A DNA stretch of 64,000 bases from Bacillota bacterium (GCA_023410645.1 JAEYPQ010000030.1:11680-75679), one strand, 5' to 3'. Numbered from the stretch's first letter, positions 16,378 through 30,252 are shown. Translations and numbers: made by a program. Notes: generated by a model from the sequence alone, not told the origin.

Positions 16378-16404
16378 TGCTTTTTTTCTTATTATTGATA
16401 TAAT
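16378..16404 (+). promoter_or_regulatory. Putative sigma-A promoter with extended -10 (TTGCTT...TGaTATAAT) for pilin-like gene 1
   Basis: TTGCTT at 16378-16383 and TGATATAAT at 16396-16404, upstream of RBS GAGGAGG and the ATG at 16435. Confidence 0.4.
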
Positions 16405-16434
16405 TTAATAAGCAACTATCTCGAGGAGGAATTT

Positions 16435-16854
16435 ATGAAAAACACTAGGAATAAAAAAATAGTATTTGAAATCTTATCTATAGTATTAATTTGTATCTTG
16501 TTTACTAGTTCGATTTTTGGATTAACACCATCAGAGCCTGGTAAAGGAAATGAGCTAACACCAATAACAGATTTAGCAGGATCAATTTGGGCAACTTTTG
16601 CAACTGTTGTTCAAGTAGCTGCAATTGTAGCAGTAGTACTTGCTGGAGTAAGATATATGTTTGCATCAGCAGATGCAAAAGCAGATATAAAAAAGCAAAC
16701 TATAACATTGGTTATTGGTGCAGTGTTAGTATTTGCTGCAGTACCACTTACCAAGTTGATTGTCGGTGCTGCAAAAGACATTTTAGACTCTAATAGTGGT
16801 TCTGCACCAAATATAGAAGTAGATCCACGTAATCCAAATCAAATGTCACAATAG
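16435..16854 (+). CDS. VirB2/TrbC-like pilin-family protein, paralog 1 (139 aa)
   Basis: Signal peptide/TM (ILSIVLICILFTSSIFG). Then hydrophobic helix 1 (AGSIWATFATVVQVAAIVAVVLAGV), a short charged loop (RYMFASADAKADIKKQ) and hydrophobic helix 2 (TITLVIGAVLVFAAVPL). This is the TrbC/VirB2 architecture. Assignment is by topology and motif, not by search. Confidence 0.5.
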   Translation: MKNTRNKKIVFEILSIVLICILFTSSIFGLTPSEPGKGNELTPITDLAGSIWATFATVVQVAAIVAVVLAGVRYMFASADAKADIKKQTITLVIGAVLVFAAVPLTKLIVGAAKDILDSNSGSAPNIEVDPRNPNQMSQ

Positions 16855-16949
16855 ATGTGTTATTATGTAGATTATTGCTCTGAATTTAGCTAATTTAGCT
16901 GAAAAATTAAAAAAATATATAAAATTTATATAAAAATTTGAGTAAACTA

Positions 16950-16977
16950 TTGATTTTTGCTAAAAAATGGGTATAAT
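16950..16977 (+). promoter_or_regulatory. Near-consensus sigma-A promoter (TTGATT-16-TATAAT) for pilin-like gene 2
   Basis: TTGATT at 16950-16955, TATAAT at 16972-16977. RBS AAGGAGG 7 nt before the ATG at 17012. Confidence 0.5.
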
Positions 16978-17011
16978 TAAATTAGGGATATAAAACTTAA
17001 GGAGGAATTTT

Positions 17012-17374
17012 ATGAAAAAGTCAAAGAAAATATTATTAAGAGTATTACCTGTATTAATGGTTATGTTTGTACTTATTGCTAGCCCTATTTTTGGAATAGA
17101 TGTTAAGGATCCAGATTCTCTAGGTGGTAAAGGATCAACTGATATTTCAAATGTTGCAGGTAACATTTGGCAAACAATTAGTACAGTAGTTCAAGTAGTT
17201 GCAATTGCAGCAGTAGTACTTGCCGGTGTAAGATATATGTTTGCATCAGCAGACGCAAAAGCAGATATTAAGAAACAAACAGTTATTTTAATAGTTGGAG
17301 CAGTGCTTGTATTTGCGGCAGTACCTTTAATGAAATTGATTGCTTCTGTATCAGATCAGATAATAAATCAATAA
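17012..17374 (+). CDS. VirB2/TrbC-like pilin-family protein, paralog 2 (120 aa; probable major subunit)
   Basis: Same architecture as paralog 1. The C-terminal 75 aa are about 85 percent identical to paralog 1 at both protein and nucleotide level (16606-16749 vs 17186-17330). Strongest promoter and RBS of the three. Followed by a hairpin plus T-run (17413-17450) that could attenuate read-through. Confidence 0.5.
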   Translation: MKKSKKILLRVLPVLMVMFVLIASPIFGIDVKDPDSLGGKGSTDISNVAGNIWQTISTVVQVVAIAAVVLAGVRYMFASADAKADIKKQTVILIVGAVLVFAAVPLMKLIASVSDQIINQ

Positions 17375-17472
17375 ATTATATTGGTGTTACTTAATTATTA
17401 TAGATTATAATTAAAAAAGATATTTTAAGTTTTAACTTATTATATCTTTTTTTATAGAAAGAAGTTGATAAG

Positions 17473-28500: not shown

Positions 28501-29183
28501 AAAGTAGAGGCGATAATAAGCATTCTGAAAATGGTTGGACTGCCGAATCAGGAGCCATAAATTCTGATTATTCTAAACTTCAACCAGGTGATATATTATG
28601 GCGCAGTGGACACGTTGGACTATATGTTGGTGATGGAAAACAAGTTGATCTTGGTGGTCCTGGAGGGGAAAATTCTGAAGCAGATCCTAATTGGAAAGGG
28701 CCAATTTATGATACAGACATAGATGGCTATACACATTATATAAGATATGTGAATAAAAATGCATTAAATGGAGTTAGTGCAGAAGATATCTTATTAATGT
28801 CTAGAATTATTGCACAAGAAGCTGGATACAATATGGAAGATTGTTTAGCTGTTGCAGCTGTAATTGTTAATAGAGTAAAAAGTCAAAGCAATGATTTTAA
28901 AGATGAAGACACGGTTCGCAAAGTTATTTATCCTGCAGGAGATGATATGGCTAAAAATAGATTGCAATGGGCATCAATAGGTGGAGTAGAATTTAATAAA
29001 GAACCTGATAAGAGTAAGGCACCGTATAAAGCTGCATTAATGGCCATAGCTGGTGAAGATCCAACAGGAGGAGCACTATATTTCTATAGTCCAAGAGGTG
29101 GATTTTATAGTGAATGGCATGAATCCTTAAAATATTTGTATACGTCACCAAATGGTCAAAGATTCTTTACACCAGAAGAATAG
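25596..29183 (+). CDS. Multidomain peptidoglycan hydrolase (VirB1/PrgK/CwlT analogue, 1195 aa)
   Basis: N-terminal coiled coil plus Lys/Ala-rich degenerate 8-aa repeats (AGKEAAKT-like, 25800-26000). One TM (IVIALALSLLFILLTT), then a large extracytoplasmic region. M23 domain: HTGIDISSG, AAHDGVVTAV, YGHLSE, GVHLHFEI. NlpC/P60 domain: ADCSSFVYSLF with Cys, GHVGLYVGDG with His. SleB-type cell wall hydrolase (Hydrolase_2) domain: LMSRIIAQEAG...LAVAAVIVNRVKS...GGALYFYSP. Confidence 0.75.
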   Translation: MDDFEKEYEEELLRQQQEEQRNQDINIRDTYDKLKSAQEKYQKLSDKINSSNNNLKQGSLNRDAANNINKSAGKKATEQGAKSVSNEAAKSAGKEAAKTAGKEAVKKTGEEAAKEAGKQVAKTAAKEAAKKGAETAAAGTGVGIPIAAAIEAADQAQKLKVKAEEKIKETTGIDLKESRKKRRKIVIALALSLLFILLTTNYVSSQDLNTTLKSLIARREARNEKKLIQFTDSEYDDLINKDYVDLPSGYSDNSVNDEKYADPGYKRMLEYAYSNNYDSFLAGKTTIDNQTKKSEVAASNTRKYLEAERLNFNKIKWYSYKSNYTYNHSSSLANDVVPTFLNSSTGSIQANGKITDSELNIPKLSEYDVNPGSNTKQKEDMYIDLLSNYMQKWFIPYLMMIDTQSKEFTINEVMEKMYSPVNVTLYQINRDTKKTKTTYYLECEVVIRTITTTIGPNGEISTSSHISDRRNSNTKNDPVGTTSYNNGNTTIEKTVTSNGKIATDSSGNPMVASVTVERNISPYKYVPKITYCEGFYDIISARYKIDPINEAITPKSTSETPLTSSDANTSYITKTEIWDENILNDVYEKKDYKVSYYSDEDYKNLGRKVSRVEWYQDYGNYLYKSGKSDVDLKIYDNEIYPLKVTNKGETIDGYQNDYLLSLEEAYDSYSNSKGYSYDDMYFAYTLISEYYSNINSLGSDVNLNLNGIPYDGFAWPVEITAENPGTNVINTLFGLTPAYGSSHTGIDISSGNLRYKEGNLTKGPKILAAHDGVVTAVSNTATSDSVYDSSTGQFTYISPYNFVNIRTQDGTYTTQYGHLSEINVKVGDTVKRGQVIGRMGTTGYSTGVHLHFEIIDSTGERLDPLNYYITDPEYGSINRNSITSMPSGYVYLRPKTFSISGNSQISDMIAKAIELANKKNILYRQNGRQTASTIVGLDNITQADCSSFVYSLFKTYLNINVGMTSDDIKSRGDNKHSENGWTAESGAINSDYSKLQPGDILWRSGHVGLYVGDGKQVDLGGPGGENSEADPNWKGPIYDTDIDGYTHYIRYVNKNALNGVSAEDILLMSRIIAQEAGYNMEDCLAVAAVIVNRVKSQSNDFKDEDTVRKVIYPAGDDMAKNRLQWASIGGVEFNKEPDKSKAPYKAALMAIAGEDPTGGALYFYSPRGGFYSEWHESLKYLYTSPNGQRFFTPEE

Positions 29184-29197
29184 GGGAGTAGAAGTAG

Positions 29198-30028
29198 ATG
29201 AATGAAAAAGATGATATAAAGTTTAATAAAAATAATAGTGGTGTTCATAAAAGAACACCACGAAAAATAAAATATTCTTTGGAACAGTTAGAACAAATAA
29301 AAAAAGAAGAACAAGTATTAGATATGTATGTTGAAAGCATTGATGATAGTCTGAATATGATAGGTATTGTAGGGACAGATATAAAAGCGATGATACCAAG
29401 AGATGAAGCTTCAAGTATTGTTGGAGATGATGGACTAGTTGAAGAAAAATTTATTGTTAATAAAAAAGGAAAAATAATACCTACATGTATAAAAGAAATA
29501 ATAAAAAATGGTGATAATATTGAATTGATATTGTCAAAGAAGATACTTGAACTTAAAGTAAGACGTTGGATGTATATGCATTTGAAACCAGGTATGAAAC
29601 TTAAAGGTGTTGTTGTAAGTACTACTGAATATGCAGCTTTTGTTGATGTTGGTGGAGGAGTAACAGGTATATTAAAATTATCTGATATTTCTGATGTATC
29701 ATTACAACATTCTAATGATGTTTTTAAATTAGGTCAAAGAATAGAAGTTATGGTAAAGAAATTCGATAGAGATACTGGAAGAATTGAATTAACATATAAA
29801 GAATTGTTAGGTTCTTTTGAAAACAATGTTAAAAATCTAAAAGAGGGAGACATTGTTGACGGTATTATACGAAATAGAATTAAGACTGGTGTGTTTGTTG
29901 AATTAAAACCTAATCTTGTTGGTCTTGCTGAACATGTTAATGGAGTGGAATATGGACAAAAGGTACTAGTTAGTATAAAAAGAATTATTCCAGAAAAGAA
30001 AAAGATTAAACTTGTAATCATAGGATAA
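29198..30028 (+). CDS. S1 RNA-binding domain protein with tandem S1/OB repeats (276 aa)
   Basis: Two clear S1 modules: MKLKGVVVSTTEYAAFVDVGGGVTGILKLSDIS...RIEVMVKKFDRDTGRIELTYK and EGDIVDGIIRNRIKTGVFVELKPNLVGLAEHVNGVEYGQKVLVSIKRII. Starts 15 nt after the hydrolase stop, so probably co-transcribed. Confidence 0.55.
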   Translation: MNEKDDIKFNKNNSGVHKRTPRKIKYSLEQLEQIKKEEQVLDMYVESIDDSLNMIGIVGTDIKAMIPRDEASSIVGDDGLVEEKFIVNKKGKIIPTCIKEIIKNGDNIELILSKKILELKVRRWMYMHLKPGMKLKGVVVSTTEYAAFVDVGGGVTGILKLSDISDVSLQHSNDVFKLGQRIEVMVKKFDRDTGRIELTYKELLGSFENNVKNLKEGDIVDGIIRNRIKTGVFVELKPNLVGLAEHVNGVEYGQKVLVSIKRIIPEKKKIKLVIIG

Positions 30029-30140
30029 ATAAAGTTTAGTAAGTAAATATATTAATTTGATATATTTACTTACTTTTTTTTGACAAAGTATTGATTTTTA
30101 GGTAATAATATGTTATTATATTAAAGTACTTGAAATACAT

Positions 30141-30217
30141 GTTCCAGTAGCTCAGTTGGATAGAGCAACGGCCTTCTAAGCCGTGGGTCGGGCGTTCGAA
30201 TCGCTTCTGGGACACCA
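30141..30217 (+). tRNA. tRNA-Arg (anticodon TCT), CCA encoded
   Basis: Cloverleaf fits: acceptor GTTCCAG/CTGGGAC, D-arm GCTC-AGTTGGATA-GAGC, anticodon stem ACGGC/GCCGT with loop CTTCTAA, T-loop TTCGAAT. Unusual: three G.U pairs (3-70, 49-65, 50-64), the last two adjacent in the T-stem. Confidence 0.65.
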
Positions 30218-30223
30218 AATAAA

Positions 30224-30252
30224 AACATCCGATAAAATTCGGATGTTTTTTG
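30224..30252 (+). terminator. Rho-independent terminator after tRNA-Arg
   Basis: ACATCCGA-TAAAAT-TCGGATGT stem-loop followed by TTTTTT. Confidence 0.7.

Follow-up and report, generated by a model that had tools for sequence, protein, structure and literature searches.

What is a set of type IV secretion system (T4SS) genes doing among the housekeeping genes of a Bacillota chromosome: does it belong to a mobile element, or has it become a resident machine, and what might it still transfer? The set in question is a cluster of 12 genes, all on the + strand (16435-30028), which extends from after a divergent M23 peptidase gene to a tRNA-Arg(TCT) gene. It lies in a window of 64,000 nt, the whole stretch of DNA analysed, from one contig (ENA ERZ27268891 k141_92506) of which 81 kb were read in total. 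A first-pass annotation, made from the window alone, had given this placement and orientation correctly but had counted thirteen genes; its proposal of a chromosomal T4SS with VirB2-like pilins, possibly "domesticated", is supported. The cluster is most likely a conjugation-derived mating-pair-formation (MPF) module, fixed and vertically maintained in a large clade of gut Clostridia that are low in G+C and uncultured. To a domesticated T4SS that is functional and makes a pilus we assign a probability of about 0.6; that the system also transfers DNA is a tentative proposal, to which we give somewhat less than an even chance.

Related loci were collected by a scan of species-representative genomes (one genome per species), which yielded 377 matching stretches; locus comparisons were made with the best 80, and all compared genomes are metagenome-assembled genomes (MAGs). 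The loci are numbered with L, the window being L001. The genes of the cluster, followed by its two neighbours, are as follows (aa, amino acids; TM, transmembrane):

16435..16854, +, pilin 1, a signal peptide and then helix-loop-helix (TrbC PF04956, 32.4 bits, cut-off 27.9; also PF18895)
17012..17374, +, pilin 2, VirB2/TrbC-type (TrbC PF04956, 36.7 bits, gathering score 27.9)
17473..18147, +, pilin 3, a tandem double hairpin in one polypeptide (PF18895, 22.9 bits, residues 151-215, sub-threshold)
18298..18642, +, PrgI/VirB3-like two-TM protein (PrgI PF12666, 19.2 bits, below the cut-off of 27)
18642..19958, +, TrsD/TraC-like N-anchored protein, 438 aa (precomputed PF26593, TraC-like)
19972..21945, +, VirB4-family ATPase (Pfam P-loop_TraG, 59 bits; AAA_10; DUF87)
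21952..22929, +, polytopic VirB6-like protein, N-terminal half of an extended protein (PF18895, 25.8 bits, residues 133-196)
22942..24081, +, C-terminal half of the extended VirB6-like protein, 379 aa (a fused plasmid protein matches the family hidden Markov models (HMMs) of both halves)
24092..24670, +, N-anchored NTF2-like protein, 192 aa, VirB8-like candidate (MecA_N, E=0.002, weak)
24660..25556, +, N-anchored 298-aa protein, conserved in position (42 orthologues collected from related loci)
25596..29183, +, membrane-anchored wall hydrolase, 1195 aa, VirB1 analogue (M23, NlpC/P60, SleB-type Hydrolase_2)
29198..30028, +, S1-domain (OB-fold) protein, member of the transfer set (S1, 62.7 bits)
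15782..16369, -, small M23 peptidase, divergent (Peptidase_M23, 85.9 bits)
30141..30217, +, tRNA-Arg(TCT), right-hand border of the cluster

Judged by profile matches, the first genes of the cluster encode genuine VirB2-type pilins in a chromosomal T4SS module. Three paralogues of TrbC/VirB2 architecture had been proposed from the sequence, and this was confirmed: two exceed the TrbC gathering score and the third is a double hairpin, the second half of which aligns with pilins 1 and 2. The pilin sequence consists of a signal peptide followed by two hydrophobic helices with a short charged loop between them. Among the pilin orthologues, 53 of 59 match TrbC PF04956 and 55 of 59 match PF18895 (best E=1e-11), and pilin 1 also shows a weak match to the Mbov_0395 pilin-like family (NCBIfam). 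An AlphaFold2 (AF2) model of pilin 2 places a signal helix at residues 3-23 and the hairpin helices at 45-77 and 80-118 (pLDDT ~65-78). A Foldseek search with the pilin model returned generic helical-hairpin matches, none with E<1, and a profile search of the PDB with the pilin family gave no match; because a fold search cannot discriminate so small a fold, the pilin claim is carried by the sequence profiles.

The hairpin-coding cores of pilin genes 1 and 2 (16615-16674 and 17192-17251, approximate positions) are identical in 55 of 60 nt, compared with ~50-60% in the remainder of the genes, which suggests gene conversion or strong constraint. In 27 related loci a conserved upstream gene, missing from the window, encodes a membrane acyltransferase of the TraX family, to which the F-pilin N-acetylase belongs; in locus L003 this gene is found at 3411-4196, ~6.5 kb upstream of VirB4, and the same holds in 26 further loci.

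The assignment of 19972-21945 to the VirB4 family likewise stood up. In addition to the Pfam matches listed above, among solved structures the VirB4 of Thermoanaerobacter (4AG5) comes closest (E=1.7e-27), and the motifs GKSGSGKS and VLIDEAWMLLD are both there. The NCBIfam matches (conju_CD1110, 234 bits; VirB4_plasma (Mbov_0397), 211 bits; TraC-F-type, 157 bits) are all below the equivalog cut-offs, and the best profile and structure matches are without exception monoderm VirB4s. The PrgI/VirB3-like protein that had been recognised directly before VirB4 was supported by its orthologues, 31 of 44 of which match PF12666 (best E=4e-8). As to the TrsD-like protein, the profile comparisons indicate that it is homologous to the N-terminal portion of long VirB4s and that VirB4 is in effect split, since 16 of 36 TrsD-like orthologues match NF045975 VirB4_plasma in its N-terminal part and the window's VirB4 aligns to positions 281-891 alone of this 894-position model. 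Two of the 36 orthologues reach the TrsD model NF041427 (E<0.01); the window's own protein matched no TrsD model, an hhalign comparison of the TrsD-like and VirB4 families built from within-clade alignments was not significant (probability 0.7%), and a PDB profile search with the TrsD-like family gave no match.

The core order of the cluster was found in 80 of 80 related loci: 1-5 pilins, the PrgI-like protein, the TrsD-like protein, VirB4 and 1-4 VirB6-like genes, followed in most loci, where recognisable, by the two N-anchored proteins and the large hydrolase. These best 80 loci all come from gut Clostridia that have not been cultured, among them Clostridium sp. CAG:465 and CAG:921; from the names CAG-465/CAG-508 we presume the host clade to be the GTDB order TANB77. 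VirB4 identity is 62-85% inside the clade and at most 42% outside it. Clustering of the sequence library at 50% identity leaves one full-length VirB4 to represent the clade, the next relative being 40% identical. The named VirB4 outgroups (Heliorestis, Peptostreptococcaceae and Caldanaerobacter) are all Firmicutes, and no distant VirB4 representative could be linked to Patescibacteria. All 12 genes are intact, and the ratio of non-synonymous to synonymous substitution rates (dN/dS) is below 1 for each of them: 0.03-0.09 for VirB4, 0.07-0.10 for S1, 0.2-0.45 for the pilins, and 0.16-0.74 for the envelope-exposed proteins (VirB6-like halves, N-anchored proteins and hydrolase).

A T4SS gene set that adjoins a tRNA gene, has homologues on plasmids and occurs in types that are incongruently distributed might be an ordinary integrative and conjugative element (ICE), or the decaying remnant of one beside tRNA-Arg. 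We rejected this explanation, which appears very improbable. Profile scans and reading of the open reading frames (ORFs) detected no integrase, excisionase or transposase in the window, and both also agree with the first-pass annotation that there is no relaxase, coupling protein, recombinase or insertion sequence in the 64 kb. No att-like direct repeats were found at the cluster borders, where repeats consist of at most 13 AT-rich bases, and there is no compositional break, as the G+C fraction of the cluster is 0.294 compared with 0.263 +/- 0.033 for the flanking genes, i.e., within one standard deviation. The 12 intact genes have intact orthologues in 80 species with dN/dS well below 1, one component is encoded elsewhere, in a conserved neighbourhood of pth and ribosomal-protein genes (see below), and the tRNA is missing from the right end of the cluster in most relatives; in 12 of 17 informative related loci its position is occupied by a MOB_C-like gene. 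G+C is ~26% across the window, the other genes of which are typical of a chromosome (smc, clpB, fbp, asd, pheS/pheT, pepF, rnr, trmB, ychF, murF and ddl), the M23 neighbour is found at the same place and on the same strand in most related loci, and the flanks of the related loci are also housekeeping genes (a PRK05813-type single-stranded DNA-binding protein (SSB), M23, pgi, M16 peptidases, glyA). In the neighbourhoods of three species no integrase was found and the neighbours were housekeeping genes. The earlier view that the cluster is not an ordinary ICE is thus supported: it has housekeeping flanks and neither an integrase, att-like repeats nor a compositional break, the same locus occurs in all 80 related genomes, and the traits of an ICE or conjugative plasmid, namely a relaxase in the element, an integrase with att borders, and variable presence with foreign composition, were not seen. 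The SSB gene was considered as a member of the element and rejected; it is the PRK05813 equivalog, and its best "plasmid" matches lie on chromid-like records, not on T4SS plasmids.

The first-pass annotation had further described a system without a coupling protein, and this had to be corrected. A VirD4/TraG-type coupling protein (T4CP) of 834 aa (PF02534 and PF12696) is encoded on the same contig, ~7 kb beyond the left edge of the window (L088 1-1621, -) and 23 kb upstream of pilin gene 1, where it stands solitary and divergent from pth-rplU-rpmA. It carries TraG-D_C (TraM recognition) and TrwB DNA-binding-type domains. The gene is kept in relatives: its best 120 matches, in Clostridia MAGs and metagenome contigs, are 65-94% identical, and in two other genomes (L089, L090) it again stands alone at the same place between housekeeping genes. 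Between two relatives the T4CP is 85% identical, compared with 76% for SMC and 66% for Pth. In none of the 80 related loci was a T4CP found within 10 kb of VirB4; the gene set of this system is a scattered one. In one genome of the clade (GCA_026415435.1), the cluster and the MOB_C-like gene described below share a contig, and the T4CP is on another. A T4CP, relaxase and integrase lying just outside the window had been named as the case that would make the cluster a known kind of ICE; the T4CP is indeed ~7 kb away, but no relaxase was found in the 81 kb. In L089, genes for T2SSF, T2SSE and MshEN, of type IV pilus or competence type, occur at 19100-22505, ~7 kb from the coupling-protein gene.

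At the other end of the cluster, the S1 gene leads to a relaxase candidate. Directly 3' of S1, a Replic_Relax (MOB_C-type) gene was found in 12 of 17 informative related loci, representing 12 species (L003 16901-17929 and 11 other loci); the relaxase-neighbour count rests on these 17 loci. The MOB_C-like gene is 67-94% identical among related species, and in two orthologues (L037, L059) it scores above the gathering score of PF13814 Replic_Relax, a family that represents the MobC relaxase class in CONJScan (PMC5357655). The same pair is found on plasmids of C. beijerinckii and Thermoanaerobacterium, where a ~290-aa S1 homologue directly precedes a Replic_Relax homologue (L092 5097-6900, L093 5029-6792), and the HMM of the S1 family matches these plasmid S1 homologues with E=2e-25 and 2e-14. 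The possibility that the S1 protein is the housekeeping rpsA was rejected, as it is paired with a MOB_C-like gene on plasmids. MOB-suite types the T4SS plasmids of C. beijerinckii, C. botulinum and Thermoanaerobacterium as non-mobilizable; the relaxase candidate is therefore probably missed by routine typing.

Where does the system come from? For four components, the nearest homologues found on plasmids all come from one small set of plasmids, which argues for a shared plasmid-type ancestry. Homologues on the C. botulinum plasmids KT897275-80 and the C. beijerinckii plasmid NZ_CP107023 are 39-42% identical for VirB4, 27-30% for the TrsD-like protein and 31% for the T4CP; for the MOB_C-like protein, homologues on C. 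botulinum, C. beijerinckii and Thermoanaerobacterium pMU3262-type plasmids are 23-27% identical. Thermoanaerobacterium plasmids are also among the top VirB4 plasmid matches, and the MOB_C-like gene was found on 9 of 72,556 plasmids. We read the T4SS locus on two plasmids, one of C. beijerinckii (p1) and one of C. botulinum (p12/29-type). Both carry the order PrgI-like, TrsD-like, VirB4 and fused VirB6-like, together with a pilin-like protein and a wall hydrolase as in the window, and a T4CP homologue is present on C. botulinum and C. beijerinckii plasmids. The C. botulinum pilin matches the pilin profile (E=3.9e-5); the C. beijerinckii copy was recognised by eye only. The plasmid loci differ from the window in having one pilin gene instead of three, the T4CP near the MPF genes, partition genes and integrases close by, and proteins that are only 23-42% identical. 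An undescribed MPF variant had been suggested; the pilin-bearing layout is not unique to the present locus, as the Clostridium plasmids carry the same order. From these homologies, the components are best read as parts of one ancestral plasmid-type conjugation system that would have been fixed and scattered in the chromosome.

Fixation of the locus goes together with exchange of its content. The VirB4 sequences form eight groups at ~78% identity, and these groups are incongruent with the flanking genes. The window and L025 share 87% identity in SSB, 85% in S1, and the synteny of pheST and tRNA-Arg; their VirB4s are only 75% identical and belong to different groups. Likewise, L020 and L057 are 97% identical in SSB and 76% in VirB4, and L006 and L049 86% and 73%, respectively; conversely, the VirB4 of L025 is 84-86% identical to that of loci with which L025 shares only 51-62% identity in SSB. 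The swapped cassettes differ in the numbers of pilin and VirB6-like genes. As near relatives by flanking genes carry different VirB4 groups, the sequence comparison implies that the pilin-to-hydrolase cassette has repeatedly been replaced between conserved flanks and has not just evolved faster. One MAG (CAYZTN01) contains two cluster copies (L018, L031) of different VirB4 groups, either a true second copy or a mixed bin.

The DNA flow inside the clade that cassette exchange shows could also fit a DNA-uptake machine, i.e., a conjugation apparatus working in reverse like H. pylori ComB or archaeal Ced/Ted. The window has no relaxase, and the cluster is chromosomal and conserved and has VirB2-like pilins, as do Ced/Ted (PMC9905601). 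Nevertheless, such a function is improbable here. A system of the ComB/Ced type would be expected to work with neither coupling protein nor relaxase; the present system has a conserved T4CP, the closest plasmid homologues of which lie on the same Clostridium plasmids as those of VirB4, and a relaxase candidate is conserved in relatives. ComB and Ced are not known to have a VirD4-type coupling protein. In one relative, moreover, there are separate genes of type IV pilus/competence type.

Among described systems, the layout of the cluster appears to match the T4SS of Patescibacteria point by point (Quinonero-Coronel et al., 2025, PMC12102498; Wang et al., 2023, as cited in later papers). There, too, the host is monoderm and the locus chromosomal, arrays of divergent VirB2-like pilins lie beside virB4, PrgI/VirB3-like and TrsD-like proteins precede VirB4, VirB6 is present (here a VirB6-like candidate), peptidase or lysozyme genes follow downstream, and the T4CP is far from virB4; relaxases, where found, are mostly MOB_C and mostly not adjacent (PMC12102498). 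The differences are that the present host is a bona fide Firmicute (Clostridia), that in many species the Clostridia locus includes the MOB_C-like gene with its S1 partner, and that the nearest VirB4 relatives found here come from Clostridium plasmids and further Clostridia.

This likeness gives weight to the principal rival explanation, one without conjugation, in which the machine serves adhesion or the exchange of proteins, signals or nutrients with neighbours, the T4CP recruits proteins, and the relaxase-like gene is dispensable or lost. The shared features (a chromosomal locus with pilin array, PrgI, TrsD-like protein, VirB4 and VirB6, and a distant T4CP; PMC12102498, PMC12857230) would fit it, as would the lack of a relaxase in the 81 kb read of this genome, and the pilins and envelope components, which are fast-evolving and variable in copy number (1-5 pilins, 1-4 VirB6-like genes). 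We nevertheless regard it as rather unlikely. In 12 related species the cluster is closed by the MOB_C-like gene, the S1 partner of this gene has been retained in the window, the T4CP has TraG-D_C and TrwB DNA-binding-type domains, and no effector candidates were recognised. The first-pass annotation had left room for a non-conjugative machine; with a T4CP conserved on the same contig and a MOB_C-type candidate after S1 in relatives, we do not favour this.

Several points weigh against a conjugation-derived system that still transfers DNA. The relaxase candidate was not found in the 81 kb read of this genome's contig, and five further related loci are alike in having no MOB_C-like gene next to S1; for the organism of the window, therefore, no claim of DNA transfer can be made. 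Assignment to MOB_C is based on profile matches just above threshold, and the relaxase accordingly stays a candidate. No oriT came to light, no search having been aimed at one. The assignments of VirB6 and VirB8 are weak. Chimeric MAG bins could inflate the signal of incongruence, the contigs themselves being continuous. Finally, the closely analogous system of Patescibacteria is thought not to conjugate (PMC12102498).

If the cluster nevertheless works as a domesticated T4SS, the anchored hydrolase would open the wall, and the PrgI-like, TrsD-like, VirB4, VirB6-like and N-anchored proteins would form a membrane translocon. The VirB2-type pilins may polymerise into a surface pilus for cell-cell contact, and the solitary VirD4-type coupling protein would feed substrates into the channel. 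The most likely substrate would be relaxase-led DNA, since S1 and a MOB_C (PD-(D/E)XK-type) candidate end the cluster in many relatives. As the system has no integrase and its parts are scattered among housekeeping genes, it would not move as an element; transfer would instead mobilise chromosomal DNA between members of the clade, where the MOB_C-like gene is kept.

Two further known systems share parts of the layout. Gram-positive conjugation systems of the pGO1/pSK41-pIP501 type (MPF_FATA; TrsC-TrsD-TrsE) have the same order of a small VirB3-like protein, a TrsD-like protein and VirB4, as well as an anchored multi-domain peptidoglycan hydrolase and a VirD4-type T4CP. They also have N-anchored proteins of NTF2 type, for which the window offers a weakly NTF2-like candidate. 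They differ in being plasmid-borne and self-transmissible with MOB_Q/MOB_P-type relaxases, and there is no VirB2-type pilin in those models (PMC12857230). The module of Mycoplasma ICEs (Mbov_0395, MMCAP2_0566, Mbov_0397) gives weak matches for three adjacent components, the pilin-like, polytopic and VirB4 proteins; these matches are far below the family cut-offs, and the Mycoplasma VirB4 is unsplit (894 positions). The Mycoplasma elements are mobile ICEs with a DDE transposase. Because a "pilin-like" protein beside the VirB4 of Mycoplasma ICEs is already curated (NCBIfam NF045849), genes of this kind have some precedent among monoderm T4SSs.

No paper describing the present cluster was found. 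According to a 2025 review, VirB2 pilins are missing from Gram-positive T4SSs, with Patescibacteria as the sole exception, and Patescibacteria stand alone among monoderms as possible makers of conjugative pili (PMC12857230). This rule would need revision, as ordinary Clostridia and Clostridium plasmids carry the pilin-bearing layout; for the same reason the view that Patescibacteria took their pilins on loan from diderms is weakened, and the origin of the pilin-bearing system becomes testable with a single phylogeny. The locus may also represent a second, independent conjugation machine that has been fixed in a chromosome under strong selection and that keeps its coupling protein and, in relatives, a relaxase, which makes it a candidate for bacterial exchange of chromosomal genes by a "domesticated" system. 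One could go further and imagine an order-level clade of gut Clostridia with a true VirB2-type conjugative pilus on a Gram-positive envelope, pilus-borne exchange of chromosomal DNA, cassette types acting like mating or compatibility types, and a Firmicute plasmid T4SS lineage as the pilin-bearing ancestor of the Patescibacteria system; taken as a whole this seems unlikely. The hosts are abundant uncultured gut bacteria, and if they are TANB77 they belong to a clade linked to immunotherapy response (PMC11680825). The "conserved pilin" of TANB77 reported in that study was considered as a product of the present cluster and rejected, since it belongs to a Tad-type pilus, a different cluster (PMC11680825).

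Downstream of VirB4 the assignments are less firm. The first VirB6-like protein is polytopic and in the right position, as proposed, but profile searches with VirB6/TrbL/PrgH models and against the PDB gave no match; a weak match to the MMCAP2_0566 family was obtained (E=3e-5), and the pilin-like hairpin inside the protein is also found in 22 of 33 orthologues (PF18895). The two halves of the extended protein share a reading frame that is interrupted by one stop codon and 12 nt (22927-22944); they are fused in many relatives and on plasmids, and the split is common to loci L002-L011. Several N-anchored VirB8-like candidates had also been proposed, of which one, 24092-24670, shows a weak NTF2-like signal in that its profile matches the N-terminal domain of PBP3 (E=1.9e-4); a single-sequence AF2 model of this protein was unusable (pLDDT 41). 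The second N-anchored protein (24660-25556) had no match in Pfam, NCBIfam or the PDB and has a weak match on a plasmid. A homologue search with the two N-anchored proteins concatenated as query returned 2 proteins only.

The three-domain cell-wall hydrolase was confirmed by profile for each of M23, NlpC/P60 and Hydrolase_2, which come after an N-terminal TM segment; in relatives the domains vary, with lysozyme-like, M15 or C39 domains instead. A 164-aa antisense ORF (25661-26155, -) opposite the Ala/Lys-rich N-terminal repeat of the hydrolase looks like a by-product of the repeat and not like a gene. In several relatives (e.g., L007 19151-21230 and L006 19469-21107), 3-4 small N-anchored proteins of 150-230 aa are encoded between the hydrolase and S1; by eye these arrays, of which the window has none, resemble the 192-aa N-anchored protein.

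In the wider window, a promoter scan found sites no more numerous than expected by chance, and an Rfam scan gave tRNAs as the sole matches. Among the nine tRNAs in the 64 kb, two tRNA-Leu(CAA) genes 1 kb apart (52343-53453) enclose the gene of a 267-aa ABC/SMC_N-type ATPase (52493-53296); a small insertion may have caused the duplication of the tRNA. At 43682-46219, 14 kb downstream of the cluster, a second M23 peptidase is encoded together with a 554-aa surface protein containing three Big_2 domains.

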